Below are positions 15,098 to 46,426 of a stretch of 64,000 bases of DNA, in pieces. Location: positions 28,534 through 92,533 of the forward strand of contig DATLUA010000014.1 in the NCBI GenBank assembly GCA_035533295.1, read 5' to 3'. The translations under genes were made by a program, and so were the position numbers. The DNA comes from Elusimicrobiota bacterium. GTDB lineage: Bacteria; Elusimicrobiota; Elusimicrobia; UBA1565; UBA9628. The notes beneath the pieces are model-generated. The model did not search any database. It worked only from the letters and a program-made list of their open reading frames with translations, and was not told where the DNA came from. Positions within the stretch are counted from its first letter, which is position 1; every line of letters starts with the position of its first letter.

Positions 15098-18066
15098 AAG
15101 TCGCCCTGGTCCAGGCGCCCTACGGCTACCGCGGCCGCGAGGCCCCGCCCTTTTCCGTAGTTTGCCTGGCCGGCTACGTGCGCCATCACGGCCATGCGCC
15201 GCTTTCCATCGATTTCGGCAACGCCCTTTACCATGCCAGTTCCCCGGATTCGCGGGTCATGTGGAATGCCGACCGGTATTCCTTCTGGGAAAATCCCGAC
15301 GCCATCGAACGCCTGCTTCATGAGACCCGTGGAACCACGGACGCTCTTATCCGGCGCATTCTCGAGAGCGGCGCGCGCGTCATCGGCTTCGCGACGCATA
15401 CCACGTCTTTTCTGGCGAGCTTGGCGCTGGCCGAAAGAATCAAGCGCGAGGATCCCTCTCGCCTCATCGTTTTCGGCGGCTACCAGTGCGCGCGCGAGAA
15501 GTCCGGCCTCGCCTTCGCGGCCGATTGGCGCGTCGACGGCGTCGCCGTCGGCGAGGGGGAGCAAACCCTCGTCGAAGCCCTGGCCGGCGTGGAGCGCACG
15601 GGACGCCTGCCGGCAATTCCTGGCCTTCTGGTGCGCGGCGAGGACGGCCGCGTCGTCGATTCCGGCGACCGCGAGCCCATCATGGACATGGACTCGATGC
15701 CGTTCCCGGATTATTCCGACTTTCGGGAGGACATCCGCGCCGGGCTTTATTCCGATCCGCGCCGCCTCGATGTCTTCGACGGGCGCAGTTGCGTGCGGCG
15801 CTGCGCTTTTTGCAACGAGTGGCAGTTTTGGGGGCGCTTCCGCTCCCGCAGCGGACGGCGGATTTTAGAGGAAATTCGGCACCAGATGTCGGAGCATCCC
15901 ACCATCAACCATTTTTATTTTACGGGGCTTCTGGTTAACGGCAATCTGCGCGAGCTCTCGCGTTTCTGCGACTTGGTTCTGGAAAGCGGCCTCAAGTTCA
16001 CCTGGGGCGGGCAGTCCATCGTCCAGCCCGGCATGGATGAAAAGATGCTCAAGAAGATGGCCGCGGCCGGCTGCCGGTGGCTCGGCTACGGCGTCGAGAG
16101 CGGATCTGAGGCGGTGCGCTGGCGCATCAATAAGAAATTCACCAACGAGAACGCATACAAGACGCTCCGAGCGACGGCGGAGGCGGGCATCAAGGCCCAA
16201 ATCAACGTCATGTTCGGCATGCCCAGCGAAACGCGTGACGAATTTCAGGAGACGCTGTCCTTCTTGACCCGCGTCAGACCGTACCTGGACTCGATTCTGG
16301 CCAGCCAATCCTTCTGCGTCATCGATAAGGACACGCCCCTGCACCGCAATCCCGAGCGCTACGGGATCACCAATCAGGATCACCACCTTTTTTGGGAATC
16401 CAACGGCGGCGAGAACAACTACGCCGAGCGCTTCCGGCGCTATGAAGAATTTTGCAAGCTGGCGCTGTTCTTGGGAGTTCCGGAAACTTCGGGCGTGCTC
16501 TCGCGCAAGCCGGATAAGTGGTTTTTGCTGGGCTCGTATTACGAGTATAAAAAGCAGCCGCTCAAGGCCGTGCTCTATCTGCGCCGCTCTCTCCTCCATG
16601 AAATTGTTGGCAAGGACACTCTGACCCGGCTGGCCGGGCTTTACGCGCAATTGCGGCATCCGGCCCGCGCCTGGGCTTTACTGCAGGCGGCCCTGAGTCT
16701 GACGCCCGAGGGCGCTGCGGATGCCGGCGACGATAGCCTGCGCGTCCGCCGGGACGCCCTTTTTCCTTCCGTTCAGGATAAGTCCCTCGCGATGATCTGG
16801 CTCAGGCGCAGGCCGTGGGGACGCGCCCTGCGCCTCAAAGAGGCGGATTCAGTTGCTGCGGAGCGTAACGGCACGGGGGAAGCCGCGCGCCGCGCAGCGA
16901 ACATCGCCTTGAACGGGGACGAGTTTAACGGCCGCAAGGAGGTCCTTTCCTCGACCCCGTCGTTGGTCACTTTGGGGACCCATAACGCGTGCAACGCCAA
17001 GTGCGTCTTTTGTCTGGAAGGCAGCTATTCGCGCTTTAGCCTCGATATCTACAAGAAATTTTTCGAGGCGAAGATGGGACACTTCATACGCCAAGCGGAT
17101 CGGGTGACTTTCACCGGCTTTGGAGAAATCCTGTGGATACCCGGCATCGAGGAGTTCTTGGACTACATCAATGAGACTCTCCCCGACGCGGAGAAAATTT
17201 TCACGACCAATGGGACGCCGCTGCGTCCTTCGGTTCTTGAACGCATCGCGAAGGGGAAATACGGCATCCAAATCTCGCTGCATGCCTCCCACGCCGCGCT
17301 TCATCAGGAATTGACCCTCTTGAACGGGCAGTTCGGACAAATCTTGGAAAATATCAGAAGCCTAAGCGCACTGCGGCAGCGCCCTGGATTGGATAAAAGG
17401 ATTTTCGTTCATTTAGTCAACGTTCTGACCCGGCGGAATATCGACGATTTGACCGATTTTATCCGAATGTCCGTGGATTTGGGCGTTCAGAGCGTCCGCT
17501 GTCAGCATGTGACGATGTTCGTTCCCGAGCATATCGAGCAATCTTGCTTTTTCGATCAGGAACGGGCCAACGCCAGCATCCGACGCGCCGCGACCTTGGT
17601 GGAGGCGATCAAGCTCAAGCACCCGAAGACGACTTTTATTGCCTCGTTGCCGCCTCTTTTTGGTTCCCGCGCCCAACTGCAAAACACCGTCTGTTACGAT
17701 CCGTGGCAGCATGTCTATGTCGAACTCCAGGGCTCGGTCATTCCTTGCTGCATGTGGGGCGACCACATTGGGAACTTGAACAAGGGCGATGATATCGACA
17801 AGGTGTGGAACAGCCGATTCTACCAGGACTTGCGCCGCGGCATGGCTTCCGGGGATCCGCATCCTTGGTGCAAAAGCTGCGTGCGCTACGCCGGCTACAA
17901 CGTGGACAGTATTTTCTGCCACATCACCAACCGTCCCGAGGCCCAAAAGGCAGTTTTACGGGAAGTTCTGCGGCGAGGCTTGCCTCTGGAAAAATCCGAC
18001 AAGGCCGCGGCCGCGAAAATGCTCGGCAAGAATATGCCTGCCGGTTCGGGGGTCCTCGCGGCATGA
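15094..18066 (+). CDS. fusion: B12-binding-domain radical SAM + TPR-like linker + second radical SAM/SPASM domain
   Basis: The N-terminal half has MKVALVQAP, a GEGEQTL cobalamin-domain motif and CVRRCAFC. The C-terminal half has CNAKCVFC plus SPASM (VIPCCMWGDHIGNL...VWNS...CKSCVRYAG). ATGA overlap with the upstream gene at 15094. The ORF is trimmed from 15025. Confidence 0.85.
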   Translation: MKVALVQAPYGYRGREAPPFSVVCLAGYVRHHGHAPLSIDFGNALYHASSPDSRVMWNADRYSFWENPDAIERLLHETRGTTDALIRRILESGARVIGFATHTTSFLASLALAERIKREDPSRLIVFGGYQCAREKSGLAFAADWRVDGVAVGEGEQTLVEALAGVERTGRLPAIPGLLVRGEDGRVVDSGDREPIMDMDSMPFPDYSDFREDIRAGLYSDPRRLDVFDGRSCVRRCAFCNEWQFWGRFRSRSGRRILEEIRHQMSEHPTINHFYFTGLLVNGNLRELSRFCDLVLESGLKFTWGGQSIVQPGMDEKMLKKMAAAGCRWLGYGVESGSEAVRWRINKKFTNENAYKTLRATAEAGIKAQINVMFGMPSETRDEFQETLSFLTRVRPYLDSILASQSFCVIDKDTPLHRNPERYGITNQDHHLFWESNGGENNYAERFRRYEEFCKLALFLGVPETSGVLSRKPDKWFLLGSYYEYKKQPLKAVLYLRRSLLHEIVGKDTLTRLAGLYAQLRHPARAWALLQAALSLTPEGAADAGDDSLRVRRDALFPSVQDKSLAMIWLRRRPWGRALRLKEADSVAAERNGTGEAARRAANIALNGDEFNGRKEVLSSTPSLVTLGTHNACNAKCVFCLEGSYSRFSLDIYKKFFEAKMGHFIRQADRVTFTGFGEILWIPGIEEFLDYINETLPDAEKIFTTNGTPLRPSVLERIAKGKYGIQISLHASHAALHQELTLLNGQFGQILENIRSLSALRQRPGLDKRIFVHLVNVLTRRNIDDLTDFIRMSVDLGVQSVRCQHVTMFVPEHIEQSCFFDQERANASIRRAATLVEAIKLKHPKTTFIASLPPLFGSRAQLQNTVCYDPWQHVYVELQGSVIPCCMWGDHIGNLNKGDDIDKVWNSRFYQDLRRGMASGDPHPWCKSCVRYAGYNVDSIFCHITNRPEAQKAVLREVLRRGLPLEKSDKAAAAKMLGKNMPAGSGVLAA

Positions 18067-18800
18067 CCGAATGGTCCGGGCGGCTCGAGGGCGACGCCGT
18101 CTGGAGCGGCGACGTATTGGTCTCCGGGGACGTGGTCGTTCCGCCGGGCGCCAAGCTGCGCGTGGCAGCCGGCACCCGGGTCAGCTTCGCTTCCCGACCG
18201 AAGTGGTCCTGCGCGGTTTTTCGCGCGGCGCCGGAGGGCTACCCCATCGAGGCATCCGATCGGGAAGCCTGCGATCTCGTGGTTTTGGGCCAGCTCGAAG
18301 TCGCTGGCTCACCGGAAAACCCTGCCGTCTTTGGCGGCCAGGACGCCCAGTGGGGCGGCATGATTTTTTTGGAGCGCGCGGCGGCAACTCTCCAGCATTG
18401 CGTAATTAAAGTTGGAACTGAATACGCTCTGCAGGCTTTCGACGATGCGCGCTTGGCCCTGGAGGACTGCGGGTTGGAAGAGGCGCAGGTGGGAATCGCG
18501 TCCCGCGGGCTTTCCCACGTTAGCATTTTAGGCGGCCGCGTGCGCGCTGGGCGCTGCGGCGCGGTGGCCTGCGAAGGCTCGCGTATAACCTTGGACAAGA
18601 CTCAGATTCTGGATTCGCCGCAAGGGCTCTGCGCGGAGGATTGGGCGCTCGTCCGGGCGACGGGATCCCGATTCACGGCCAACAGAGATTTCGCCGTTTC
18701 GGCCCGAGGGTATTCCTGGGCGCGGTTCGACGGCTGCGACTTTGAGAAATCCGGCGAAACGGCTCTCAGGTGGGAACATGCCAGAATCGATGTCCGCTAG
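18063..18800 (+). CDS. right-handed beta-helix repeat protein
   Basis: Repetitive G-x-V/L beta-helix rungs (GDAVWSGDVLVSGDVVVPPGAKLRVAAGTRVSF; LGGRVRAGRCGAVACEGSRITL). ATGA overlap at 18063. The ORF is trimmed from 17805. Confidence 0.6.
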   Translation: MTEWSGRLEGDAVWSGDVLVSGDVVVPPGAKLRVAAGTRVSFASRPKWSCAVFRAAPEGYPIEASDREACDLVVLGQLEVAGSPENPAVFGGQDAQWGGMIFLERAAATLQHCVIKVGTEYALQAFDDARLALEDCGLEEAQVGIASRGLSHVSILGGRVRAGRCGAVACEGSRITLDKTQILDSPQGLCAEDWALVRATGSRFTANRDFAVSARGYSWARFDGCDFEKSGETALRWEHARIDVR

Positions 18801-20145
18801 GCTCTTTCGCGGCCTGTTCCCCTACGCTGAAAAGAGGGTGGCGCGGCGGCTCTGTCGTCTCGGTCTTTGGCGCAAGCTCGCCAATTATCTTTGGGTTGAA
18901 TTTCTAATCGGGCGGGGCTCCGTTCGCATGTGGGGGGGCAAGCCCTACTGGCTCACCGTCGATCCGACGAATTTTTGCCAGCTCCACTGCCCCTTTTGCC
19001 CCACGGGCGCCAACCGGGGGGTGCGCGGTAAATCGTCCATGTCCCTGGAACATTTCAAGAAGTTCCTCAATCGCGTCGGTCCGTGCGTCATCCACATGGA
19101 CATGATGAATTGGGGCGAGTCGCTGCTGAACAAGAACCTGCCGGACATGATTGCCCACGCCAAGCGCTACGGCATCGAAGTCAAGCTCGACGCCAACTTC
19201 AACGATGTCTCCGAGGAGACCGTTGAGAGGCTCGTCCTGTCGGGCCTCGACGTTCTGAGCGTCTCCATCGATGGAATTTCCCAGGAGACCTATGGCCGAT
19301 ACCGCGTCGGCGGGAAACTGGATCGGGTTTTGGCGAATCTTGAGGTTTTGGTGCGTAAGCGCCGGGAACTGGGTCGAGCCACCCCGCACATCATCTGGCA
19401 ATTTCTGGTTTTCCGCCACAACGAGCACGAGGCGGGAGGCGTCGAGTCATTCGCGCGCGCGCGCGGCGTGGACCAAGTGAGCTTCGTGGCCCCCTTCCTG
19501 CCCAACGAGCCGGGTTATTTGTCGGAATGGTCCGCTCGCGCGCCCAATTTTCGCCTTTACCCCCTGCCGGAAAAAGAACCGACGCCCGAGGAAATGGAGC
19601 GCGCTAAAAACAGCGTTCATGTAAAGCAGGTTCCTTCGGCGGAGGCTTTTCACGCGCGACGGTTTCAGTCCCGCCACCTGCTGAACTGGATATACCTTTC
19701 CGGCTTACTGACGCAGGCGCGCGGTCTTGAGAGTGGGATGAGGGAAATCTGGCGGCGGATGAGGGCGGCCATTTCCCAGGCGAAGGCTTCCGCGGCGGGC
19801 TTGGACACGGCGCCTTTTTCCGGAGCCAAGGGAGGCGCTCGCGCTATTTGCAAATGGCCCTGGGCCGGCATGGCGGTTAATCCCAACGGCAGCGTGTCGC
19901 CCTGCTGCAGCATTGAGAGCGAGTCCGACGATTTCGGTAGCGCCTTCGCGCAGGGCTGGGGAATGCTTTGGAACGGCCCGAAATATCGCGCGTCCCGACG
20001 ACATGTTCGCCGTTACGTTAAAAATCGCCGCGGAGTTCTTCCACACGCGGATCATGTCTGTGAACGCTGTACGGCCATCGGCTACGCCAATTTTAAATTT
20101 CCCATTCAGTGGACCAAGGACGCGCCGGAGGGCAAAAGCGCATGA
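18778..20145 (+). CDS. radical SAM/SPASM domain protein
   Basis: CQLHCPFC motif. C-terminal SPASM (NPNGSVSPCC...GMLWNGPKY...CERCTAIG). Start chosen at the ATG at 18778 with AGGTGGG upstream; the TTG at 18742 is an alternative. Overlaps the upstream gene by 23 nt. Confidence 0.8.
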   Translation: MPESMSARLFRGLFPYAEKRVARRLCRLGLWRKLANYLWVEFLIGRGSVRMWGGKPYWLTVDPTNFCQLHCPFCPTGANRGVRGKSSMSLEHFKKFLNRVGPCVIHMDMMNWGESLLNKNLPDMIAHAKRYGIEVKLDANFNDVSEETVERLVLSGLDVLSVSIDGISQETYGRYRVGGKLDRVLANLEVLVRKRRELGRATPHIIWQFLVFRHNEHEAGGVESFARARGVDQVSFVAPFLPNEPGYLSEWSARAPNFRLYPLPEKEPTPEEMERAKNSVHVKQVPSAEAFHARRFQSRHLLNWIYLSGLLTQARGLESGMREIWRRMRAAISQAKASAAGLDTAPFSGAKGGARAICKWPWAGMAVNPNGSVSPCCSIESESDDFGSAFAQGWGMLWNGPKYRASRRHVRRYVKNRRGVLPHADHVCERCTAIGYANFKFPIQWTKDAPEGKSA

Positions 20146-22164: not shown

Positions 22165-23337
22165 ATGAAGACATCGACCATGGAAGCTGAAGCGTTGGCT
22201 GCGGTCGCGCAAAAAACGCCCCCCACTTTCTCCGCGCTTCGCCGCCGCCTTTTAGAGCAGCGGCAGCGCGAAAATGTCGCGCTCAACAATCGGGAATGGG
22301 AAGAGAAAAAAATAATTCTTTCCAGCACCCCGCAACGAATCTTCCTGCAAATCAACGCCGTGTGCAACGCGGATTGCGTCTTCTGCTCCAAGGGCTACGA
22401 TTACCCGCTTTTCCGCATTGATGAATACAGGGAGAAATACGGGAGGCAGATCACCCCGGTGCTGCAAAAAGCGCGCGAGGTCATTCTGACCGGCTCGGGC
22501 GAGTTCATGGGCCTGCCGGACGCCCCCAAGATCATCCGCTACTTCAACAACGAGTTCCCTCACGTCGAAAAATACATCGCCACCAACGCCTCCCATCTCA
22601 AACCCGAGATTGTGGATTTAATCGCGGGCTCCGGCAGCCGCTACACCCTGCAGATCTCGCTGCACGGCAGCGACGAGGAAACCCACAAGCTCATGATGCG
22701 CTACAACTCTTATCCGCGCGTCATGGAAAACGTCCGCCGACTGATGGAGGCGCGCGGCCGCGGCGGCAATCTCTCGATTTCCTTCATGTTCGTCATGACG
22801 ACCTTGAACGTGGAAAACCTTCCGGATTTTGTGCGCTTCGCCAAGGACATGGGCGCCGAACGGGTCTTGGCGGGCTATTTCTACATCTACGAGGCGCAGC
22901 AAAAATACCTGTCCCTCTATTTCAAGCAGGACTTGGCCAATAGAATCATCGATGAGGCCCGGCGCGTCGCGCAAGAAGTGGGCATCGAGGTCCGCCTGCC
23001 GCACAAGTTCGGGCAGCGGCCCGAGGCGTCCTCCAAGCCCACCTCCTGCATCGAGCCGTGGCATCAGGTGATGGTCAATCCTGACGGGGCGGTTCTTCCC
23101 TGCGACGTCTATGGGGGCTTCAACGAGAACTTGAACCAGAAAAGCTTTATGGAAATCTGGAACGGACCGGCCTACCGCGTGATTCGGGCCGCCCTGCGTC
23201 GAGGCGGGGGGTGCCTGACCACCTGCCCGCGGCATAACCCCATCGGCATCAACGATTGGCGCGCGCACGTCATCCACCGCCCCAAAGAGGACCGCCAAAT
23301 CGCGAAGGAGTATCGGGAGGCCCTGAGAAAGCCATGA
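22165..23337 (+). CDS. radical SAM/SPASM domain protein
   Basis: CNADCVFC motif. C-terminal SPASM (MVNPDGAVLPCDV...FMEIWNGPAY...GGGCLTTCP). Confidence 0.85.
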   Translation: MKTSTMEAEALAAVAQKTPPTFSALRRRLLEQRQRENVALNNREWEEKKIILSSTPQRIFLQINAVCNADCVFCSKGYDYPLFRIDEYREKYGRQITPVLQKAREVILTGSGEFMGLPDAPKIIRYFNNEFPHVEKYIATNASHLKPEIVDLIAGSGSRYTLQISLHGSDEETHKLMMRYNSYPRVMENVRRLMEARGRGGNLSISFMFVMTTLNVENLPDFVRFAKDMGAERVLAGYFYIYEAQQKYLSLYFKQDLANRIIDEARRVAQEVGIEVRLPHKFGQRPEASSKPTSCIEPWHQVMVNPDGAVLPCDVYGGFNENLNQKSFMEIWNGPAYRVIRAALRRGGGCLTTCPRHNPIGINDWRAHVIHRPKEDRQIAKEYREALRKP

Positions 23338-25297: not shown

Positions 25298-26138
25298 CCC
25301 GCAGGTTCGCTTCACTTGGAACATCCACTGGAGCTGCAACTACCGCTGTTCCTACTGTTTTTTTGATGGACGCTGGGCGGAGTACGGACGTCGCAACGTC
25401 TACCAGAGCGTGGATCAGTGGATGGGACACTGGCGGCGGATTTATGAAAAATACGGGCGGTGCTATCTGACCATCAACGGAGGTGAGCCATTCGCGTATC
25501 CCAACTTCGTGGAGTTGATGGTCCAGGTCTCGTCTCTGCACTGGCCCATCAACGTCACCACGAACACGTCCTTGCACCTTAAAGATTTTGTCGGCCGCGT
25601 CGATCCGGCCAAGGTCTCCATCTCCATCAGCTTTCATCCGCAGTACCACACGATCGATGAGTTCCTCAAAACCGTGCGGTTCTTGAGAGAGCGCCGCGCG
25701 AACATCGGATGCATCAATTTCGTGGCCTGGCCGCCTTTTTTGAAGGATTTGGCCGAATATATCCGCCGGTTTCAGGCGGAAGGGGAGAGCCTCAAGGTTA
25801 TTCCCTTCATCGGCGCTCATGAGGGTGTGAATTATCCAGACAACTACAGCGAAGGGCAAAAAAAAATCCTGGGGCTCACCGATAATTGGCTGGAGAGCAA
25901 GCGCCACGAAGGCATGCTCTGCCGCGCCGGGCACCAGTCGGCGCTTCTTCTGCCGACCGGCAAGGTGGCCCGTTGTGGGCAAATCGGCGACCGCTATCTC
26001 ATCGGGGATTTTTTCCAGGAAGGGTTTTCTTTGATGAAAGAGCCCATGCCCTGTGATGAGCAATTTTGCCCTTGCGATGAGTGGAAAGTCATCCCGGATG
26101 AAAAGCCGCCGGAGAAGGCGGGGGCGTGGCTGCCGTGA
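25290..26138 (+). CDS. small radical SAM paralog C
   Basis: FTWNIHWSCNYRCSYCFF, GGEPFAYP and CRAGHQSALLLPTGKVARCGQ...PCDEQFCPCDEW. Start at the ATG at 25290, which overlaps the upstream stop by 8 nt. Confidence 0.85.
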   Translation: MASPQVRFTWNIHWSCNYRCSYCFFDGRWAEYGRRNVYQSVDQWMGHWRRIYEKYGRCYLTINGGEPFAYPNFVELMVQVSSLHWPINVTTNTSLHLKDFVGRVDPAKVSISISFHPQYHTIDEFLKTVRFLRERRANIGCINFVAWPPFLKDLAEYIRRFQAEGESLKVIPFIGAHEGVNYPDNYSEGQKKILGLTDNWLESKRHEGMLCRAGHQSALLLPTGKVARCGQIGDRYLIGDFFQEGFSLMKEPMPCDEQFCPCDEWKVIPDEKPPEKAGAWLP

Positions 26139-30582: not shown

Positions 30583-31133
30583 AAATTTATTTAAGCTACA
30601 GTCTCGCCGAGAAAGATAAGTCTATTTTGGATAAGATCGTGGGACTTTCCTCCGATTTCGGCGTCACGGTGGTGCCGGCTCCTCGTTCATGGCCGTCTCA
30701 GGACGCCGTGCCGCCGGAGGTCGCCGAAGCCATCGACTCCGCGGATTTCGCACTTTTTTGGCTGACGGTTGACGGTCCGGCCCTCTCCTGCATCAACTTG
30801 GAGGCTGGTTATATACGGAATTCTCCCCGACGACTGCCTTTTATGATTTTTTCGCCTAACGGCTTTGAGCCCTCGGGATGCCTGCAGTATCGTCCTTTCG
30901 TTCGCTTCAATATCCGCGACACGCGAATCACCATCGGCCAGATCTGGGATTTTCTCCACCATGAATACTGCGACCAGCCGCAAGCGGCTGCTGCTTTTGG
31001 GGGCGTTTTATTGGCTCTCGTCGGGATGCTGTTGATGCGTCACGCGCCTGAGGTGCCGCCTCCCACGGATGATGAAAAATACCATGAGCAATTGCGCCAA
31101 GCCGCGGTCTTGCTGCGCGGAGGTCAGTCGTGA
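30579..31133 (+). CDS. hypothetical membrane-anchored protein (possible TIR-like fold)
   Basis: Starts MKIYLSYSLAEKDKSI, which is reminiscent of a TIR betaA strand, and has a C-terminal TM helix (AAFGGVLLALVGMLLM). ATGA overlap at 30579. The ORF is trimmed from 30552. Confidence 0.45.
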   Translation: MKIYLSYSLAEKDKSILDKIVGLSSDFGVTVVPAPRSWPSQDAVPPEVAEAIDSADFALFWLTVDGPALSCINLEAGYIRNSPRRLPFMIFSPNGFEPSGCLQYRPFVRFNIRDTRITIGQIWDFLHHEYCDQPQAAAAFGGVLLALVGMLLMRHAPEVPPPTDDEKYHEQLRQAAVLLRGGQS

Positions 31134-32527
31134 CGCCTGCTCGGCCGGCACCGTTTTCCGCCCCATCGGGACTCTCGCCGCGGGATCTCGCCCTACGGCA
31201 CGAGAAGCAGGCGCGCGAGCATTATTTGAAAGGGGATTATCCCTCCACGGTCGAAGATCTCAAGCGTTGCCTTGAAACCGCCGTCGTGCCCGAGCACAAG
31301 GACTTGCGCATGCGGCTCCTTATCCTGCAGAGCTTGCGCCGTTTCGGCAAGCAGGACGAGGCGTGGGCGGTCCTGCGGGAGATGGAGGGCCGCTACGGTG
31401 AAAGCGGCGAGAAATACATCCGGAATCTTCTGCTCAACGAAAAGGAGATTCAAGAAGGCCGCATTAAGATAGAGTCGTATCCCACGCGCCTGACCGTGCG
31501 GCCCACGAGCCGCTGCTCGGTCCACTGCATCATGTGCACATTTTGGAAGGAAACGCCGTGGGATATGCCGCAAAAAACCCTGGACGAGGTCGCCGATCTC
31601 TATCCTTACCTGGAGGACATCCTTTGGCAGGGCGGCGAACCCTTTGAGATGGATCGCGAGATTCTTGAGCGCATTCTTCTGCGCGGCCGCGACTATCCGC
31701 GCATGCTCCAGAACTTCATAACCAACGGGCAGCACATCGATGAGCGCTGGGCCAAGATATTGGTGAGCATGAACGTCCATATGAAGATTTCCATCGACGG
31801 CACGACCGCGGAAGTCTACGAGAAGATCCGGGTGAAGTCCAGCTTCGAAAAAATTCTAACCTCCATCCAGAATCTCAACGGCGAAATGACACGGCAAAAC
31901 CGGCGCATCGGATTCTGGATTCACATGGTGGTCCAGCGCTTGAATTACCACCAGATCACGGACATGATCGAGTTCGCCCACCAGTACGGCTTTGACGGCG
32001 TGGCCTTGAGTCCCATGGAGGGGGATCTCTACCGCAAGATAGACGTCTTCAACTACGGCGATCCGGAGATTTGGCGCTCCATCGAGGAGCAGCGCGCGCG
32101 GGCCCGGCAGATGTGCCTCGACTACGGGATTTACCTTGAGGACAACATGCCGCCCCCGCCTTCGCTGGAGGACAAACCGCACCCCATAAGCGAGGAGGAA
32201 AGCGAGAAGAGATTTTCGCTCTACCCCATGCCCTTCGAGGATGGAGCGCGCTACGTTTCCAAGGAGTACTCCTATTTCTGCCTCTCCCCGTGGAAGAATA
32301 TGATTCTCAGAAACGGCGGCGGCGTCCTGCCCAACTGGCACTGCGGCGAGCGCTACATCGGCAGCATCCATGAGAGCTCGCTTCTGGAGATTTGGAACGG
32401 CGAACCCATGCAGAACGTGCGCCGCGGGATTGTGGAACGGCGTTTCGGCGGCGTCTGCCGCCACTTCTGCCTCTCCGGGGCCCTGATGGAGACCTGGAAG
32501 CACCACATGGAGTGGTACTGGTCCTAA
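31130..32527 (+). CDS. radical SAM/SPASM domain protein with N-terminal helical (TPR-like) region
   Basis: CSVHCIMC motif and C-terminal SPASM (CLSPWKNMIL...LLEIWNGEPM...GGVCRHFC). GTG start within a GTGA overlap, with a GGAGG RBS. Confidence 0.8.
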   Translation: MTPARPAPFSAPSGLSPRDLALRHEKQAREHYLKGDYPSTVEDLKRCLETAVVPEHKDLRMRLLILQSLRRFGKQDEAWAVLREMEGRYGESGEKYIRNLLLNEKEIQEGRIKIESYPTRLTVRPTSRCSVHCIMCTFWKETPWDMPQKTLDEVADLYPYLEDILWQGGEPFEMDREILERILLRGRDYPRMLQNFITNGQHIDERWAKILVSMNVHMKISIDGTTAEVYEKIRVKSSFEKILTSIQNLNGEMTRQNRRIGFWIHMVVQRLNYHQITDMIEFAHQYGFDGVALSPMEGDLYRKIDVFNYGDPEIWRSIEEQRARARQMCLDYGIYLEDNMPPPPSLEDKPHPISEEESEKRFSLYPMPFEDGARYVSKEYSYFCLSPWKNMILRNGGGVLPNWHCGERYIGSIHESSLLEIWNGEPMQNVRRGIVERRFGGVCRHFCLSGALMETWKHHMEWYWS

Positions 32528-37119: not shown

Positions 37120-38845
37120 TTATTTGATGGAGGCCTCGGCGATTCTTTGCAAGTCTGAGAATGATGAATCGTACTGCTGGGCGTCGTGCTGCGCTCGGGC
37201 TTCGCGAACGGCTTGGGCGCCGTAGGCCAAAACGGCGGGAAACTCCCCCTGCCGGGCCGCGACTTCGAATAGGAGCCGTAGGATGTGGACCAATCCGCTC
37301 GGGTTTGGATTTTGCTGGGTTCTGGCGAGGACCGTCAGGGGAGCGATGCGGGGATCGTTCCGAAAATCCAGCAGCATCTTTTCGGCCTCCTGAAGCCGAC
37401 CGGTCTCGATGAGGAGCTTAACCATGGCGTAGAGGGCTTCGTAGATCGGAGCTTGGTAGATTATCTTCTCCTTCAAGCTCAGCGCGCGATTGAAAAGCTG
37501 CTCGGCCTCGTCATGGCGGCCTTGCCTGGCTCGGACTCGTCCCAGGAGCGTGTGCCCCATGATGACTCGGGTGTTGAAAGGCCTCCGTCGCGCCATCGCG
37601 GAGAGCAGGCATAGGATTTCGGCGGCCTCATCCAGCCTGTCTAAGTCGATCAGCGTGGCGCCGTTTTCGTGAAGGCTCTGGATTTCATAGGCGTGATCGT
37701 CTCCGAAAGGCTCATCGCGCAGCGCGCGGGCTTGATGAATGAAGTCCAACGCCTTTTCTTTGCGGCCGATCGTGTTGTTAACGCGGGCAAGCCCCCAAAG
37801 GAGCTTGGATCGCACGCTTCTGGCCGCTCCTATTTTGCCGGCGGATTCAAGGCACTGCCGATAGAGGTCTTCGGCGGCGCAATGGCGGCTGGTGCCGATC
37901 AGGATATCGGCAAATTGCGAGGTTTGGCAGGCCCAGGCGTAATCATAGCGTCCGCGGTTCGTCATGTTCTCCAAGGCGGTCCGGGCGACGATTTCGCCCG
38001 CTCCCCATTTTTTTTGACCCATGAAAACGCAGGTTAGCCGGGCGGCCTCGAAATCGTTCCGCGGCGCGTCGGCGGCGCAGCGGGGACCTCTCCAGGCTTC
38101 GCTGTGGAGAGTCTCGCCTTCCAATGAGCGCCCTGCGTCGCGAAAGCGGCTGGCGAAGGTTCGATAACCCTGATTCATAAACGCCCGCGTCCGAGGCCGA
38201 GGCGATGAGTTCTTGGCCTTCTGCGACTCTCCCGGAAGCGACCATGGCAAGTCCGCGTTGCATGTCCAACTCGGGAGAGGAAGCTCCGAGCGCGGCGGCT
38301 TTGGTCCCAAGAGCCATGACCTCTCCGAAGCGTTCCGAATGGAATAGGCTCTGGGCGAGTTCGCTCCAGACGTGTTTTTTCTCGGGGGATAGGTCCCTCG
38401 CCCGCATTAAGCTGCGGACCGCGCGCTCGAAATCGCCGTTTCGATCATAGACGCGGCCCAACTCGTAGCAAAAATCGGATTCTGCCGGGAAAGAGGACGC
38501 TCCTCGCTCCAGAACGGCCGCGGCTTCCGCGTTTTGCTCCTGATAGCGGAGGATGCGGCCCGCCGAAATAAGCGTTTGGGCGCCCGCGGGCCGCAGCGAC
38601 AGGATGCGACGGACTATCGCGCGGGATCGGGAGTAATCGCCCATTTCCCAGAGAGACTCCGCCAAGGAACGGGCGCTTTCCAACGCCCGGAAATCAGCTT
38701 CTCCGAAAAGCTCTCGGGCGCGCGTCAGCAGATTGTTGAAGCTGTTTGCCGCTTCGCGCAGGCGTCCGAGCCCGGCGGCCGCGCGCGCGCGCGCCAAGTC
38801 TTCATCCCAGGCCTTTTGCGTCAAAGCGTCATGCTGTTCGTTCAT
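37120..38845 (-). CDS. TPR-repeat protein read in two overlapping frames (38845-38165 and 38163-37120), with an apparent frameshift near 38165
   Basis: Both minus-strand ORFs (37943-38845 and 37120-38310) contain TPR-like repeats. The tail of the first and the head of the second are low-complexity junk over the overlapping nucleotides. Joining them near 38165 gives one continuous TPR protein. Confidence 0.5.
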
Positions 38846-40233: not shown

Positions 40234-41895
40234 TCAGCGCGGGTGACGCGATAGTTTAGCCCTTGGCGCGCCGGCGCGCAAGGCGGAGTAGGGAATCCCC
40301 GCGAGCCTGCGCATGAAAAAAACGGCGCGCGGGTCGCCCGGATTGGCCGTCAGAGCTTGGCGGAAATCTTTCAGGGCGTCGGCGCGGCGGTTCTCTTGGA
40401 TGTCGAAGAAGCCGGACTGGATATGAGGATCCGCCCATCCGGGGAAAATTAACCGAGCTTTTTTATTCGCGGCCCGGGCTTCGCCATGCCTGCCCGTGCG
40501 CCAGAGCGCCTCGGCCAAGCCGAGGAAAGCCGCCGATCGTTTTTTAGGATCAGGAAAAGCGCGGACGAAAATCGAATCGGCCTGCGCTCTTAGCTGCGGC
40601 AGATGGCGTTCCGCGAAATAGGAAAAACTCCGCCAGCCGGATGGAGCGGGTTGGGGAAGCATGTGAAAGACGTTGGCGATTTCCGAATATCTCAGCGGCG
40701 GGGAAAGCGGCGCGGAGCGGTAGGTCTTCGGTGTCAAGCCGCTCCAGCCGCGATCCATCAATTGCAAGGCGCAGAAATGAGCAAGCTCTTGGAAATTTCG
40801 GTATTTGACATGCTGGGTGTCATGGAAGTTTTTCCAGCCGGGAATGCCGTGCGGAGCTTGGTTCTCGATAATTTGCTCGGCGTCCACGAGCATCGCGCCG
40901 TCCCGGACGGCCGCCCGGCGGATGAGGCTGTTGACCGCCGTTGAGGCGCGCAGGCGCGCTGGATCAACATCTCGCGCTAAGATTAATTGTGCGTACGCTT
41001 TTTGCCAGGTGCCTTCCCGGTAAAACCAGGTTCCAAGGGTAAAATGCCAAAGGGCGGAAGGATGCGTATCTAGAGCCAGGGTCAGTAGAGTGATGGCTTC
41101 TTTCCTGTGTCCGGAATCATATTCGTAGCGAGCTTCCAAGTAAACCGGAGCAAAATCATCCCCCGCATTCGGTTGGGGTTCCACCCAAAGATTGGATGGA
41201 ACCGTCGCCAGTATCAGGGGCAGGCCGCGGGACTGGGTTTCCTCGGCCATCGTGTCGATAAAGCTTTCCAGAGCGCGCCAGCGCTTGGCGTCTTCGTAGT
41301 CTTGCTTCGGATCGAAGACGTTTAGATAGGATATGAGAGCGCTCTTGCGCGTCCATAAAATTAAACGCAGAAGCAAAGGAGACGCATCGGGATGGGAATA
41401 GTAGAGATTGTGGCCAAAGAGGAAGATCACGGCGTCCGGGGAATATTTCATGCATTCGTCAAAGCGCCGCTCGACAAGGTCGAGATCGGCGCCGCCGATG
41501 GCGCAGTTGAGAACTTGGTAATTGCCCGGAGAGGGACCGACTTTTATTTCTTGCCGGAGCGCATCGCCCAAATCGTCCGCGCTGGATTCCCCGGCGATAA
41601 GGATGCGCCGTACGTCCGGGGGCTTGTCAAGCGGCATTATTTGGCGTTTTTCCAGCTTCCAGATAGTGTCGTTTTGAACGAGGGAGGGGCGTCCGCCGAT
41701 GGTTTTAATTTTAAAAAGCGGTTTGGTGCTTTCCCTGAGATATGTCAGGTAGTCCGCCGTAAGCGGCTGACGCTGTCTGCCGGGTCCGTAACAGCGCGCG
41801 ATCCACTCGGCCTCGCACAGCAGGCCTATGGTCAATGCGGCGGCGATGAGCGAAAGGGATATCTTAAGGGCGTGGCGCTGGAATCGGCTAGGCAC
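40234..41895 (-). CDS. membrane-anchored SGNH-hydrolase-like protein with C-terminal TPR-like region (paralog of 34231)
   Basis: ILIAGESSADD, IFLFGHNLYY and FHDTQHV blocks. Same architecture and collinear similarity to the protein at 34231-35865. Confidence 0.7.
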   Translation of the reverse strand: MPSRFQRHALKISLSLIAAALTIGLLCEAEWIARCYGPGRQRQPLTADYLTYLRESTKPLFKIKTIGGRPSLVQNDTIWKLEKRQIMPLDKPPDVRRILIAGESSADDLGDALRQEIKVGPSPGNYQVLNCAIGGADLDLVERRFDECMKYSPDAVIFLFGHNLYYSHPDASPLLLRLILWTRKSALISYLNVFDPKQDYEDAKRWRALESFIDTMAEETQSRGLPLILATVPSNLWVEPQPNAGDDFAPVYLEARYEYDSGHRKEAITLLTLALDTHPSALWHFTLGTWFYREGTWQKAYAQLILARDVDPARLRASTAVNSLIRRAAVRDGAMLVDAEQIIENQAPHGIPGWKNFHDTQHVKYRNFQELAHFCALQLMDRGWSGLTPKTYRSAPLSPPLRYSEIANVFHMLPQPAPSGWRSFSYFAERHLPQLRAQADSIFVRAFPDPKKRSAAFLGLAEALWRTGRHGEARAANKKARLIFPGWADPHIQSGFFDIQENRRADALKDFRQALTANPGDPRAVFFMRRLAGIPYSALRAGAPRAKLSRHPR

Positions 41896-41900
41896 GAGCG

Positions 41901-43838
41901 CTAATCCGCTAATTCCCGAAGCTCGGGAAAGACGTCGGCGAAGCGTTCGCCGCGCAGGGCGTCAAGCTTCGCCGTGATTTCCTGAAACCGGAGGCGCTCC
42001 TCGGGAAGATCGCGAGCCATCATGAACTCCACGGCTCCATTAATGTAATCAACAGCCGCGCTCGCTTCGTGCCCGAAAGGAGCCAGAACCGTCTCAATGT
42101 GGCGGGCGTATTTCTCCCGGACGCGCTCCTTCAGGCTCGGGGGCAGTATCTGCAGTTGGTAGTGCTCGGGAGTCATGACCAAGTTGATGACCATGTTTTT
42201 AGCGAGGACGTAGCCTTTTTCCAGCCAGTCTTTTTGAAGATCCGGCAGGCAGAGCGAGTTAAGCGCGCTCAAGGTCGAGATCAAGTTGAGCTGGGCGCGT
42301 GGGCAGACGCGCGCCATGTGCTCGCGGTTGGCCAGGATGTCCTCCCATTTCTGCCCTTTGCGGATGTATTCTCCCCGCCGGCCCATGGCGTCGATGGAGG
42401 CGCCGACATGCACGGTTTCGAATTTGTCCCAGAGGGCGAAGATGTCGTGATCCTGGAAATGGGTCATGGAGAAATTGGTGCTGTAGAGAAGCCGCACGTG
42501 AAAGAGCTTGCGCTTGACGAGGAAATCCAGAATTCGGAAATGCTCCTCCATCAATAGGGGCTCGCCGCCGGCGAAGTAAATTTCCTCCAAGTCCGGCAGC
42601 AGCTTTTCGATTTGCGTCCAGAGCGCGTCCGACTCACCGGGCCGCAAGAGGGCCATCGTCTCGCTTTGTTTCCCCGTGAGCGCCGCGTAATCAGCGTGCC
42701 AGGAACTGCTGAAGATCGGGCCGCACATGCGGCAGCGGAAGTTGCAGACGTTGGAGAAGCGAAAATCCAGGTAGAAAAGCTTAAACGGCTCGACCGTGCC
42801 GTCGGGCTTCGTGTGTTCGGCGAGGCCGTATCGGTGAGGGAAATTCTTGTTCATCCGTTGCCTCTGGCTGGGCGATCCGTGGGACTCGGCCTCGTAGCAC
42901 CGCGAGCAGGCCGAGCTTCGTTCGCCGCGAAGCATGTTGAGCCGCAGCTGCCTCTCGCTTTCCGAGTTCCAAAGCTCCGGGAGGGAGTCTTTCTTGAGAT
43001 TGCCCAGAGGCGGCGCCTTCCACGTCGCGCAGCACGGGTAGACGTTCCCGTCCGGCCACGCGCTCAAGTGCATCCAGGGCAGGATGCAAAAGACCTTCGA
43101 ATCCCTGAGGCGTTGGGCGGCCCGCTGCGTCCAGCGGGGGGACTGCTTGTCCATTTCATCCGGAGCGGGGGCGGAGCGGGCGCCGGATTTGAGCAGGGCG
43201 TACTGATACCATAGCTTGGCTTCATGCAGAGCGGATGCAGCGTCGACGGGATGGTTCTTGAACGCCTCATTGCCATCGGAAAAAAGACGGTCCATGGCTT
43301 GGATATTCATGCGCTCTGAGGCCTTTAGGTACCAGAAGCGGGCCTTTTCAATGTCTTTCTCGACTCCTTTCCCATCGAGATATAAATCTCCGAGGATGCC
43401 TTGGGTTTTGGCGTGCCCAAGGCGCGCCGCCCGGCCGTACCAGCGTGCGGCGCGCGCATCGTCGATAGGGACGGCGATGCCGTAGCGGCAGTGATTGCCG
43501 AACAGCGCGAACGTTTCGGCGTAATAAGCCAGGCGTTCCTTCCGATCCGCGGGCGCGCAGCGGCGGTACCATTTGAACGCTGTTGAAAAGCTTTGCTCGA
43601 CGCCGTTGCCGTTGCGATAAAGATCGCCCAGGGCCTTTTGGGCGTCCGGAAAGTTCAGCCTGGCGGCGCGCTCATACCAGCGCCTAGCTTCCTGCGCATC
43701 GGCCGGAACGGACTCCCCGGACAAATAAAGGCGCCCAAGGATGACGCAAGCTCTCGGATCGTCGGCTTTCGCGGCGCGGCTGATTTCCTCGATGGCGGCC
43801 TGCTTTAGCGCGTCGCCGCTTTCTTGAGGCTGGGTCAT
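41901..43838 (-). CDS. Sel1-repeat + N-terminally placed SPASM-like Cys motif + radical SAM protein
   Basis: Sel1-like repeats (ARRWYERAARLNFPDAQKALGDLY, ARFWYLKASE) are followed by FCILPWMHLSAWPDGNVYPCC...ELWNSESE...CSRCYEAE, a SPASM-type motif. Downstream are FRFSNVCNFRCRMCG and GGEPLLM. Start taken at M24 (43838), which abuts the upstream stop; M1 at 43907 is an alternative. Confidence 0.75.
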   Translation of the reverse strand: MTQPQESGDALKQAAIEEISRAAKADDPRACVILGRLYLSGESVPADAQEARRWYERAARLNFPDAQKALGDLYRNGNGVEQSFSTAFKWYRRCAPADRKERLAYYAETFALFGNHCRYGIAVPIDDARAARWYGRAARLGHAKTQGILGDLYLDGKGVEKDIEKARFWYLKASERMNIQAMDRLFSDGNEAFKNHPVDAASALHEAKLWYQYALLKSGARSAPAPDEMDKQSPRWTQRAAQRLRDSKVFCILPWMHLSAWPDGNVYPCCATWKAPPLGNLKKDSLPELWNSESERQLRLNMLRGERSSACSRCYEAESHGSPSQRQRMNKNFPHRYGLAEHTKPDGTVEPFKLFYLDFRFSNVCNFRCRMCGPIFSSSWHADYAALTGKQSETMALLRPGESDALWTQIEKLLPDLEEIYFAGGEPLLMEEHFRILDFLVKRKLFHVRLLYSTNFSMTHFQDHDIFALWDKFETVHVGASIDAMGRRGEYIRKGQKWEDILANREHMARVCPRAQLNLISTLSALNSLCLPDLQKDWLEKGYVLAKNMVINLVMTPEHYQLQILPPSLKERVREKYARHIETVLAPFGHEASAAVDYINGAVEFMMARDLPEERLRFQEITAKLDALRGERFADVFPELRELAD

Positions 43839-43839
43839 C

Positions 43840-44787
43840 TCATTCGGGCGCGCACGAGGTCCAAGGCGAGGCGTACTTTCCGATGTTGTTGAGTATATAG
43901 CGGACATGTTTGGCTCCGGCGGAATTCCCAGCCCTACTGTAATCCGAAAGAGCCTTGTGCCAAAAAGCCTCCGCCTTGGCCGTGTCGCCGCAGGCCGCCT
44001 CCGCCGCGCCCATTTTCAGCAGGATGTCCATCGCGTGCGTGGATTGCGGATTGCAGGCGAGGAGCGTCAAGTCTCCCCGGCCTGCTTGGCGCGCCGTGGA
44101 CCAGTCGTCCATGCCTTCCCATATATCAAGGGCCATCGCGGCCGCCGCGATGGCGTCCGAGCAGTCCGACGGCGTCGCGAATTCGCGTCGATTTTTTTTA
44201 AGCGACGCCTGGAGCGCGGAGAGTCGGGTGCTGGCCTCTTTCGGCCGCCCCGCGGCGACGGCGTGCTGCGCTTGGCCAAGGCGTAGAATCGCCTTTTCTA
44301 ATGCGGTGCAGCCAGGGGAGGATGAGCACCGTTGGCGAGCGTCGGTCAGGGCGTGCTCTGCCTCGGATTTTTGCCCCAGGGCATCCAGAATTTCGGCCCG
44401 ATGAATGATGATCCAGGCCCACATCGGGGAGAATGAGCCGCAGTCCTGGGCCGCCTGCTCCAGCAAACCCGCCGCCTTCTTTTGTTCGCCGGAAGCGGCG
44501 TAAACTTGGGCCAGGCGCTGGAGGGAGTCGGCGTAGTCGCTTCCGGACTGGCGGCCTTCTTCGCGGTAAAGGCGCAGGGCGGTCTTGAACTCTTGTTCGG
44601 CTTGCGGGAGTTCGCCGGCTCCCAGCGCGATTTCGCCGGCGCGCTGGTGGGCCAGGGGGTCGCCTGCGGTGCTGGGCGAAAAAGGGAAGAGATGGAAAAA
44701 GCGCAGGGTTAACGCTAGAAGCGCGGCCAGGATGGCGAAGGAAATTATCGAGCGGGGAAAGCGCCTCATTAACGGCAATTTTCTCAT
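43840..44787 (-). CDS. membrane-anchored TPR-like protein
   Basis: N-terminal TM helix (IISFAILAALLALTL) and helical A/L/E/Q-rich repeats. Confidence 0.6.
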   Translation of the reverse strand: MRKLPLMRRFPRSIISFAILAALLALTLRFFHLFPFSPSTAGDPLAHQRAGEIALGAGELPQAEQEFKTALRLYREEGRQSGSDYADSLQRLAQVYAASGEQKKAAGLLEQAAQDCGSFSPMWAWIIIHRAEILDALGQKSEAEHALTDARQRCSSSPGCTALEKAILRLGQAQHAVAAGRPKEASTRLSALQASLKKNRREFATPSDCSDAIAAAAMALDIWEGMDDWSTARQAGRGDLTLLACNPQSTHAMDILLKMGAAEAACGDTAKAEAFWHKALSDYSRAGNSAGAKHVRYILNNIGKYASPWTSCAPE

Positions 44788-44815: not shown

Positions 44816-46426
44816 TTAAGAGGCTTCGGAACGCGCTTCTTTTTGCAGAAAAGGCCAATAAGCGCGAAAAAACGCTTCCGGAGGCTCGGCGTTGACCTCC
44901 GCTTCCGGGCGCGAGAGCCACTCCGATTCCAGCCGCTTGATCCACGGTTCTGAGCCGGGAAATCGAACGCGGTAGCGTTCGAGAAGCGCGTCCGCGTCTT
45001 GGGCATCCAGGGGAGAGCCTTCGGCAAGATAAAGGCGCGGGCCTAGAACACGGCTTAAAAGGAAGAAAATTCTGTAGGCATTGTGCCCGGTCTCGGGGTC
45101 GAGAGCCAGCGCCCGGGTGGAAAGGTTGAGCGCCGCAGCCGTTTGACGGGCCAGCGTGGTCATTTCCGCGTGATCGGGCGCGAAAAGCCTGCGCGCGTCC
45201 ACGTTCCACTGCAGACGGTAATACTGATTCCAAATCGGGTGTCTGCGGCTGTGCTTTAGAAGCCAAATCCGGCCGGGAGTTCCCGGCGGCCCGAGGCCGT
45301 GCGCTAGAAACGGAGAGTCCAGAAAGGGGCTGTAAAGGAGGCCTTGCAGAATATTGTAGGTGAACGCCCATCCGGGGGCCGAGAAGGCGTTCTCGCGCAG
45401 ATGCCACCGATCCATGCGGGCGGCCAGGATTTTGAATTTCTGCTGGGATGGGGGCCGATCTAGAACGATAAACCAGCGAAACAGATTGTCCATGAAAAGG
45501 CCGCAGCCGCCGGGAATATCCAGGGCGGCGAGCGTTCGTGCGCGGCGGCTCCAGAGGGCAAAATTCGGATCGGGAGATCCGACCAGGTCGTACCATTCGC
45601 CCGCATTGGGTGATTGTAACGGAAGCCGTCGCCCAATCGAATCGGAGAAATGCCGGACGCAGGTCTCGTCCGCGAAGATCATGGCCGCGAGCAGAAGTTC
45701 GAACGCCTCGTTTCTGCCGATTTTTTCGGGTCGTTCCAGAGTTCTAGCCGTTTTAGCGGAGACATGGGAGCCGATAACGGCCAGGTATTCTCTCCGAGTC
45801 GGAATGTTTTGGGCGCGTTCCATTGCCGCTTGGCCGTGGCGGAAAACATCAATGAAGAATTTGGATGCCTTGAACCCGAATTCGGGAGGCTCTTTTTTTT
45901 CGGCGGCTCCGAAATAAGTTTGAGCCAGGGATAAATAGGCGGCGAGAGATTCTTGAAGATGAAAAAGCCCGAGGCCGGATTTCGCGGCGGCGGACTCTTT
46001 GATTTTCGCTGGGCGGCCGCTGGCAATTTTCCACCCCGGCATTTCATGCGCCCTCCATCCTCCCGCGTGGGTGTAGCCGTCAAGCTCGCGCGGCTCCGCA
46101 ATCTGAAGTTCGCCGAAAAAAGGGAAAATACGCTTGAAGCCGAGGTAAAGCCTCCAAAGCTTCAGGACGGCTTCGGCGCCGTCATCGTCCACGGCGGCGA
46201 GCAAGTCGATATCGCTGATCCCAGGGAGCCACTCCCGGCCGGCCATCCCGCGGCGAAGGTAAAGGGCGCCCCGTCCTTTGAAATTCAAGCGGAAAGCCAC
46301 AGAAAACAGCCCAAGAGCGCCACGATAGACGGCCCGATACAAGCCCAGGGAAACCGGCCGGTTCCGGGCCCGGATGGCCGCGGCTCGGATGGTCGCAATG
46401 AAGCGGCTTCGAAAATTCTCAGGCAT
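44816..46426 (-). CDS. nucleotidyltransferase-domain-like large protein (hypothetical)
   Basis: 536 aa. GISDIDLLAAVDDD resembles the S-D-h-D-h catalytic signature of pol-beta-type nucleotidyltransferases. The remainder is helical with no other motif recognised. It is the first gene of the minus operon and is preceded by an AT-rich divergent region. Confidence 0.5.
   Translation of the reverse strand: MPENFRSRFIATIRAAAIRARNRPVSLGLYRAVYRGALGLFSVAFRLNFKGRGALYLRRGMAGREWLPGISDIDLLAAVDDDGAEAVLKLWRLYLGFKRIFPFFGELQIAEPRELDGYTHAGGWRAHEMPGWKIASGRPAKIKESAAAKSGLGLFHLQESLAAYLSLAQTYFGAAEKKEPPEFGFKASKFFIDVFRHGQAAMERAQNIPTRREYLAVIGSHVSAKTARTLERPEKIGRNEAFELLLAAMIFADETCVRHFSDSIGRRLPLQSPNAGEWYDLVGSPDPNFALWSRRARTLAALDIPGGCGLFMDNLFRWFIVLDRPPSQQKFKILAARMDRWHLRENAFSAPGWAFTYNILQGLLYSPFLDSPFLAHGLGPPGTPGRIWLLKHSRRHPIWNQYYRLQWNVDARRLFAPDHAEMTTLARQTAAALNLSTRALALDPETGHNAYRIFFLLSRVLGPRLYLAEGSPLDAQDADALLERYRVRFPGSEPWIKRLESEWLSRPEAEVNAEPPEAFFRAYWPFLQKEARSEAS

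Follow-up and report, generated by a model that had tools for sequence, protein, structure and literature searches.

In a 2021 review the SPASM and twitch domains of radical S-adenosylmethionine (SAM) enzymes were defined as C-terminal extensions, a twitch domain being recognized by a CX9-15GX4C motif, further cysteine ligands and one auxiliary cluster (PMC9012708). The founding twitch enzyme is BtrN, the 2-deoxy-scyllo-inosamine dehydrogenase (Protein Data Bank, PDB, 4M7S/4M7T), whose auxiliary cluster is ligated by four cysteines, and a role of the auxiliary cluster as electron acceptor has been proposed for BtrN, SuiB and PqqE (PMC9012708). Here we describe a gene for a radical SAM protein in which the order of the two modules is reversed. 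It lies on the reverse strand of a 64,000-nucleotide stretch of the genome of an Elusimicrobiota bacterium (contig DATLUA010000014.1), the whole of which is called the window below, and its 645-residue product carries Sel1 repeats, followed by a twitch domain and then by the radical SAM barrel. We show that this protein belongs, as an ordinary member, to N_Twi_rSAM, a known and curated family of very large size that experiments have not yet reached.

Results

The twitch domain precedes the barrel in a single gene

The open reading frame (ORF) runs from 41901 to 43907 on the reverse strand and comprises 668 amino acids (aa) when counted from its first ATG. The start codon chosen in the initial annotation, at 43838, is Met24 of this frame and gives the 645-aa protein discussed here, which is 100% identical to a protein found in our homolog search (P0001) and named at NCBI 'MAG TPA: twitch domain-containing radical SAM protein [Elusimicrobiota bacterium]', where MAG stands for metagenome-assembled genome. 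The TGA stop codon of an upstream TPR gene (43842-43840) is placed 1 nucleotide (nt) before the ATG at 43838, as is typical of a translationally coupled junction. In the following, the positions of Pfam and NCBIfam matches refer to the 668-aa numbering, and those of cysteines and features to the 645-aa numbering.

The SPASM model PF13186 matches aa 274-338 over its full length (model positions 1-67 of 67) with an E-value of 1.4e-12 and 48.1 bits (cut-off 21.5). The match is preceded by Sel1 repeats (PF08238; four stretches, 95.9 bits, cut-off 30.7) and no in-frame stop codon separates the two parts. It is clear from Pfam and from the sequence itself that a SPASM-type cysteine domain is situated downstream of the Sel1 repeats and upstream of the radical SAM motif in one ORF, as had been noted in the initial annotation, and a full-length SPASM match ahead of the barrel is not what a chance spacing of cysteines would give. 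The distance of approximately 100 aa noted at the same time also holds, since the first twitch cysteine is located 114 aa (C251 to C365) and the PCC pair about 95 aa before CNFRCRMC. Only two Sel1 repeats had been counted; at least four score in Pfam, and about 12 helices are seen in the AlphaFold2 (AF2) model. Pfam, NCBIfam and the spacing in homologs all place the domain N-terminal to the barrel, so that the C-terminal position expected of a twitch domain is not found.

The order is fixed in a large curated family

The NCBIfam model NF033640 (N_Twi_rSAM, a short name that we read as "N-terminal twitch") matches aa 270-666, corresponding to residues 247-643 of the 645-aa protein, over model positions 1-397 of 398 and with 394.8 bits against a cut-off of 170. 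A word-indexed homolog search gave 855 relatives among 8,000 candidates scored, and the best 120 of these 855 were examined. They show 41-50% identity in the core. None of the 120 departs from the order twitch to barrel, and the first cysteines of the two motifs are 113-118 aa apart throughout. A distinct and undescribed subfamily had been proposed from the letters alone, with a call for homologs of the same order. Distinct it is, judging from the fixed order in 120 of the 120 examined, but at the database level it is not undescribed, because the curated model NF033640 covers the full core at a score far above its cut-off and P0001 already bears a corresponding name.

The family is both large and widespread. 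An exhaustive profile search through 1.84 billion cluster representatives returned 5,469 clusters (50% identity) at E<=1e-30, and a scan of the species representatives of the Genome Taxonomy Database (GTDB) gave 362 relatives in Elusimicrobia, Bdellovibrionota, Bacteroidota, Acidobacteriota, Gemmatimonadota, Myxococcota and Legionellales, among other groups. Members are typically 400-430 aa long with only 5-45 aa ahead of the twitch domain, and some polypeptides contain the complete twitch/radical SAM module twice or three times (P0004, P0006, P0146). A subgroup of about 565 aa in alignment A5 carries an N-terminal extension of 140-175 aa without a Pfam match.

Relatives are found in phages as well. 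Distant homologs were detected by tblastn in KVP40-like Vibrio phages and in the Ralstonia phage RsoM2USA, consistent with a Foldseek comparison against predicted viral structures, where approximately 20 proteins of uncultured Caudovirales matched over the whole fold (query TM-score, TMq, 0.7-0.9) and "MoaA/NifB/PqqE family" proteins of KVP40 and phi-pp2 matched more weakly. In PHROGs the only match was to a generic family, "radical SAM domain-containing protein", and a paper of 2017 noted that the genome of a T4-like marine virus holds 12 radical SAM genes (PMC5332604).

The cysteines correspond to a single auxiliary cluster

The twitch cysteines are C251, C269, C270, C311 and C314, arranged as C251-x12-G264-x4-C269(C270) ... 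C311-x2-C314, which amounts to one cluster's worth of cysteines. In the 72-sequence family alignment A1 (core numbering) C31, C32, C73, C76, C127, C131 and C134 are invariant, while the first twitch cysteine, C13, is kept in at least 90% of the sequences; invariant in terms of motifs are the PCC pair, the CxxC, the three radical SAM cysteines, the GGE and a C-terminal P-E. When the family profile was compared to all PDB sequences, positions 26-98 aligned to residues 163-238 of BtrN (4m7s) with an E-value of 8e-5, and the four conserved cysteine positions of the family coincided one to one with the cysteine ligands of the single auxiliary [4Fe-4S] cluster of BtrN. A twitch domain is described, in the review and reportedly by Grell et al. 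in 2015, as a CX9-15GX4C motif on a β-hairpin that is followed by a helix and further cysteine ligands.

A full SPASM domain with two auxiliary clusters was considered and rejected. The Aux-II cysteines CX5CX3C...C are absent, and the seven-cysteine motif CX9-15GX4C-gap-CX2CX5CX3C-gap-C is not found: C311-x2-C314 is followed by YEAESHGSPS, no cysteine comes until C365, and the family alignment holds no extra invariant cysteine. The motif had been taken for the C-terminal half of a SPASM domain, but it corresponds to the first, Aux-I (twitch) part.

Both module orders occur in the window

No second N_Twi_rSAM paralog is encoded in the window, which does contain four relatives of canonical order, i.e. 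with the barrel ahead of the twitch domain (15025-18066, 18742-20145, 22165-23337 and 31130-32527). All four carry the same twitch subtype (CxxPW..PCC..GN..WNS..CxxC) at their C-termini. The gene at 15025-18066 on the forward strand encodes a 1013-aa double radical SAM protein with a B12-binding radical SAM module at aa ~100-450, then a second module, and a C-terminal twitch domain at aa 886-955 that scores 44 bits to positions 28-98 of the family profile and 70.8 bits to model positions 2-71 of NF033640. The canonical-order relatives score 55-75 bits to NF033640, below the cut-off of 170, and for their barrels this model is the best or nearly the best NCBIfam match; it ranks first, although sub-threshold, for the 22165 and 31130 proteins and sixth for the 15025 protein. 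Twitch and barrel modules are in this way found in both orders among close relatives, as circular permutation predicts, and N_Twi_rSAM appears from the sequences to be a circularly permuted relative of the BtrN-type radical SAM/twitch enzymes.

Predicted structure of the core

The AF2 model of the core (aa 239-645, built from the 72-sequence alignment) has a mean predicted local distance difference test (pLDDT) of 93.3 and a predicted template modelling score (pTM) of 0.90, and the full-length model a pLDDT of 92.0 and a pTM of 0.82. The twitch domain is modelled with strands E19-22 and E27-29 forming a β-hairpin (core numbering), followed by helices. The barrel consists of six β/α units (pLDDT 93) and the C-terminal region of long helices (pLDDT 94-99), while the Sel1 region forms about 12 helices, or ~6 helix pairs, mostly with a pLDDT above 90. 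The radical SAM cysteines C365, C369 and C372 and the GGE motif are present, and these key residues are invariant in the family. A Foldseek search of the PDB with the model gave matches to the barrel only (CteB, SkfB, viperin, anSME, BlsE and MoaA; probability 1.00, TMq at most 0.42), with SuiB also among the top structural matches, and no solved structure with the whole architecture was found. The features of the gene are collected in Table 1.

Table 1 Features of the Sel1/twitch/radical SAM gene and positions of the radical SAM genes in the window.
Feature	Position	Strand	Basis or remark
Whole gene, 645-aa Sel1/twitch/radical SAM protein	41901..43838	-	Stop codon 41901-41903; translation verified
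N-terminal Sel1-like α-solenoid, aa 1-217	43188..43838	-	PF08238, 4 stretches; AF2 helices H8-H217
Linker, aa 218-247 (SGARSAPAPDEMDKQSPRWTQRAAQRLRDS)	43098..43187	-	Outside every family profile; lowest pLDDT, 72-85, in full-length model
Twitch domain, predicted auxiliary Fe-S site, aa 248-320	42879..43097	-	PF13186; NF033640 model positions 1-~70
Helical connector from twitch to barrel, aa 321-354	42777..42878	-	AF2 helices H87-94 and H96-104 (core numbering); NF033640 coverage
Radical SAM partial (β/α)6 barrel, aa 355-555	42174..42776	-	PF04055; six AF2 β strands; Foldseek
CX3CX2C motif CNFRCRMC (C365, C369, C372), predicted SAM-binding [4Fe-4S] cluster site	42723..42746	-	Sequence; invariant
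FAGGEPL, "GGE" SAM-binding motif, aa 422-428	42555..42575	-	G186, G187 and E188 invariant in alignment A1
Family-specific C-terminal helical region, aa 567-645, VFPEL at end	41904..42140	-	AF2; P400 and E401 invariant; NF033640
Genes with Radical_SAM matches	13955, 15025, 18742, 20109, 22165, 23256, 24290, 25107, 27519, 29257, 31130, 32550, 38853, 41901, 47317		Pfam

The Sel1 module is a rare variant of a recurrent fusion theme

Repeats of the Sel1, TPR and ankyrin types are well known as modules that bind peptides and proteins. The permuted order already defines a curated family, and the fusion to Sel1 repeats is the only unusual trait of the present protein. Among the best 120 of the 855 relatives, Sel1 repeats were present in just three clusters, P0001 and two others (P0002-P0003) at 78% and 74% identity, and a partial Sel1 ortholog is found in another Elusimicrobia MAG (locus L012). 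In two orthologs the Sel1 region, which has kept its length, is 54-62% identical, compared to 84-88% in the core; the Sel1 part evolves faster yet is maintained.

The ortholog loci come from independent assemblies and are syntenic with the window. The shared order is a 536-543-aa protein without family match, a 315-aa TPR protein, the Sel1-twitch-radical SAM gene, a downstream protein of 506-553 aa, which in the window has GDSL/SGNH and TPR matches and in the orthologs no Pfam match on record, and a B12-radical SAM gene. The latter is adjacent in the window and in loci L006 and L007, and in L005 the nearest such gene is four genes further on and on the opposite strand. In the window the TPR gene occupies 43840-44787 and the SGNH-TPR gene 40234-41895. 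The conservation and synteny of the fusion in orthologs rule out an assembly artefact, and the single frame, together with the same architecture in orthologs from independent assemblies, shows that the repeat domain is truly fused to the enzyme, as initially proposed. A separate encoding of Sel1 and enzyme was likewise considered and is refuted by the continuous frame, by at least three independent assemblies (74-78% identity) and by synteny.

The 536-aa protein of the window (44816-46426, reverse strand) has no Pfam or NCBIfam match, and is found upstream of the Sel1-radical SAM gene in L005, L006 and L007 too. By eye only, its "GISDIDLL" stretch resembles nucleotidyltransferase-fold motifs.

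Fusions to other repeats recur in the family. In the Elusimicrobia MAG MJ-2014_bin-0981, 39 ORFs carry from 4 to more than 20 TPRs ahead of an N_Twi_rSAM core; they are 62-72% identical to each other and follow one another head to tail, with at most 5 on a contig (loci L017, L020, L022, L023, L025, L026, L028-L030, L032-L034, L036 and L039). A survey of 30 extended members of the top representative clusters gave TPR in 5, ankyrin in 1, a family 2 glycosyltransferase (GT2) domain in 1 and Sel1 in none. Within this repeat-fusion theme, Sel1 is an accessory module that is seldom used. A docking role for the repeats is plausible, and agrees with the repeated appearance of other such fusions among family members.

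Genomic surroundings

The gene belongs to a radical SAM-dense island (12116-54838) with 15 genes that have Radical_SAM Pfam matches, several of them B12-binding, and a further gene at 26126 with a weak B12-binding match only. The island is organized in tightly packed operons and also contains genes of the TPR, GDSL/SGNH(-TPR) and metallo-β-lactamase-fold types as well as glycosyltransferase genes, three of GT2, one of GT4 and one PMT_2-TPR. Two TPR ORFs on the reverse strand, 37120-38310 and 37943-38845, overlap by 368 nt as listed; the downstream ORF is listed with a TTG start, and its true start codon is probably further in. A link to the nitrogenase-paralog radical SAM clusters of Elusimicrobia (bioRxiv 10.1101/765248) was rejected, as no NifHDK-like product was present among the window ORFs scanned.

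Elsewhere, family members often form arrays in which 3-7 paralogs follow one another head to tail and the stop codon of one overlaps the start codon of the next (L001, L002, L003, L008, L009, L010, L019, L027 and L035). Several of these array loci are on phage-like contigs with many small unannotated ORFs and genes for thymidylate synthase, dihydrofolate reductase (DHFR) and dCMP deaminase, where the neighbours include DegT aminotransferase, NAD-epimerase/dehydratase, GFO/IDH/MocA oxidoreductase, carbamoyltransferase and GDSL genes. For the chromosomal loci we made a census of 86 neighbouring proteins at 11 loci (within L044-L081). Apart from radical SAM proteins (10/86), the commonest neighbours were PhyH-family iron/2-oxoglutarate (Fe/2OG) dioxygenases (7/86), and epimerases, family 1 glycosyltransferases (GT1) and ABC transporters were counted three times each. 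No single conserved partner that would fix the substrate was found at these 11 loci.

Discussion

Above we showed that the twitch domain of this protein stands ahead of the barrel, that the order is constant in the relatives examined, and that its cysteines align with those of BtrN. We consider it moderately probable that the protein is a permuted BtrN-like N_Twi_rSAM enzyme in which the twitch domain serves as electron acceptor and the Sel1 repeats as adaptor. The CX3CX2C cluster would cleave SAM reductively to the 5'-deoxyadenosyl radical, which would in turn take a hydrogen atom from the substrate. The N-terminal twitch domain would fold back onto the barrel opening and bring a predicted auxiliary [4Fe-4S] cluster near the active site, for which the pTM of 0.90 of the core is an indirect indication. 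Fully ligated by cysteines, this cluster could take an electron from the substrate radical, resulting in a two-electron oxidation or a related tailoring reaction. The Sel1 solenoid would do no chemistry and could anchor the enzyme either on a partner or on a substrate carried by a protein. Likely partners are the products of the two genes that directly flank it in its tightly packed operon, the membrane-anchored TPR protein upstream and the membrane-anchored SGNH-TPR protein downstream.

With respect to the substrate, a glycan, sugar-nucleotide or glycoconjugate is our tentative suggestion, possible though open to considerable doubt. Glycan-type tailoring is favoured because of the GT2, GT4, PMT_2-TPR and GDSL genes in the island, the sugar-type enzyme genes beside homologs and the existence of a GT2-fused member.

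A number of observations weigh against the permuted BtrN-like enzyme or its presumed substrate. The Radical_SAM match (PF04055, aa 384-533) scores 29.3 bits, just below the cut-off of 29.5, and the packing of the twitch domain on the barrel is a prediction read from a single figure, the pTM. Two cysteines are not explained by a simple BtrN-like four-cysteine cluster, namely C270 (43029-43031, reverse strand), the second of the PCC pair and invariant in the family, and C512 (42303-42305, reverse strand; in VCPRAQ), which is kept in at least 90% of it. No N_Twi_rSAM member has been characterised biochemically or structurally, and no paper on an N-terminal twitch/SPASM arrangement or on NF033640 was found in the literature searched, where the twitch papers dealt with enzymes of C-terminal twitch/SPASM type or with unrelated subjects. 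The neighbourhood is heterogeneous, PhyH proteins, ABC transporters and other radical SAM proteins being equally frequent, which speaks against a glycan substrate. Finally, the best match of the B12-radical SAM neighbours in the window is TIGR03975, the radical SAM C-methyltransferase of the maturation of peptides made by the ribosome and modified after translation (RiPPs), at 128-133 bits and below the cut-off of 281.85.

These last matches would suit an alternative that we regard as rather unlikely, namely that the protein is a peptide- or protein-modifying maturase in which Sel1, like TPR or ankyrin in paralogs, replaces the RiPP recognition element (RRE) in recognizing the substrate peptide, and in which the core would crosslink, epimerise or oxidise a RiPP-like peptide or a folded protein. 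The fused repeats are of the type that binds peptides and proteins, the 39 TPR-fused paralogs of a single MAG, with 4 to more than 20 repeats, look like a diversified target recognition, and CteB, SkfB and SuiB are among the top structural matches. Peptides are also the substrates of most of the characterised SPASM/twitch enzymes whose Aux-I cluster is fully ligated (PMC9012708). Every match to a RiPP-maturase model is well below its cut-off, however, including those to TIGR03975, and neither Pfam nor NCBIfam gives an RRE match. No precursor-peptide gene was detected, the tightly packed island leaving no gap for an obvious small ORF, although small ORFs were not searched exhaustively. Furthermore, most family members (~400-430 aa) have no repeat domain at all, and members are often found beside sugar-nucleotide enzymes. 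Even less probable, in our opinion, is a wider proposal in which the α-solenoid fusions (Sel1, TPR, ankyrin) form an unrecognised enzyme class, where the permuted twitch domain frees the C-terminal side of the barrel and the variable N-terminal repeats select protein or glycoconjugate targets. If true, the paralog expansion in some Elusimicrobia would be a diversified targeting system and not ordinary metabolic tailoring.

The twitch domain could also dock in trans on the barrel of a neighbouring radical SAM protein, by domain swapping in arrays or oligomers, in which case what looks like a permutation would stem from gene boundaries that moved within earlier [barrel-twitch][barrel-twitch] arrays. 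Paralogs very often stand head to tail in groups of 3-7 whose stop and start codons overlap, double and triple modules exist in fused form, and duplication followed by truncation is a textbook route to circular permutation. We nevertheless hold docking in trans to be very unlikely, as AF2 confidently models the core monomer as a compact unit, the single N_Twi_rSAM gene of the window has no adjacent partner of the same family, and the spacing and connector between twitch and barrel are conserved as one unit. As for an artefact, whether in the form of two genes wrongly joined in sequencing or assembly or of cysteines spaced by chance, it could be pointed out that the Sel1 fusion is rare (P0001-P0003 and the partial ortholog at L012) and that Sel1 proteins are usually periplasmic. 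The protein has no signal peptide at its N-terminus, as judged from its sequence, its frame is continuous, and the architecture recurs with conserved synteny in at least three independent assemblies. Together with the SPASM E-value over the full model, the invariant cysteines and the alignment to BtrN, this makes an artefact extremely improbable.

The permuted BtrN-like enzyme thus remains our preferred account. The architecture with the twitch domain ahead of the barrel occurs in thousands of bacterial and phage proteins and is absent from the literature searched and from the PDB. A structure or an activity of any one member would tell us if an auxiliary cluster that comes from the N-terminal side works like that of BtrN, and would open a large uncharacterised enzyme family. 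The Sel1 fusion is mainly a handle on the partner or substrate of the enzyme, and the protein otherwise adds little.

Compared to typical N_Twi_rSAM members, the present protein has the same domain order, cysteine pattern, GGE motif and C-terminal VFPEL helices, with a 217-aa Sel1 solenoid and a linker as an extra N-terminal part. The TPR-N_Twi_rSAM fusions of Elusimicrobia (P0038 and the MJ-2014_bin-0981 paralogs) share its solenoid-linker-core design. They differ in having 34-aa TPRs in 4 to more than 20 copies and in being tandem paralogs that number in the dozens, while the orthologs with Sel1 are single-copy. The canonical-order paralogs of the window have the same twitch subtype in the reversed order, and lack the C-terminal helical region of the family.

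Among the characterised enzymes, the SPASM maturases (anSME, CteB, SkfB, SuiB, PqqE) provide the best Foldseek matches to the barrel (TMq 0.37-0.42) and match the same Pfam SPASM model. Their SPASM domain is C-terminal and, SkfB excepted, holds two auxiliary clusters, while the present protein lacks the Aux-II cysteines, and many of them carry an N-terminal RRE where the present protein has Sel1 repeats. BtrN likewise has a CX3CX2C barrel and a single four-cysteine auxiliary domain. Its twitch domain comes after the barrel (residues 163-238 of 269) and not ahead of it, and the likeness is confined to the twitch domain and the cluster loop, BtrN having neither the C-terminal helical region nor Sel1 repeats. 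By analogy, the two-electron oxidation of a carbohydrate-like substrate by BtrN (PMC9012708) would be the best mechanistic model for the present protein.

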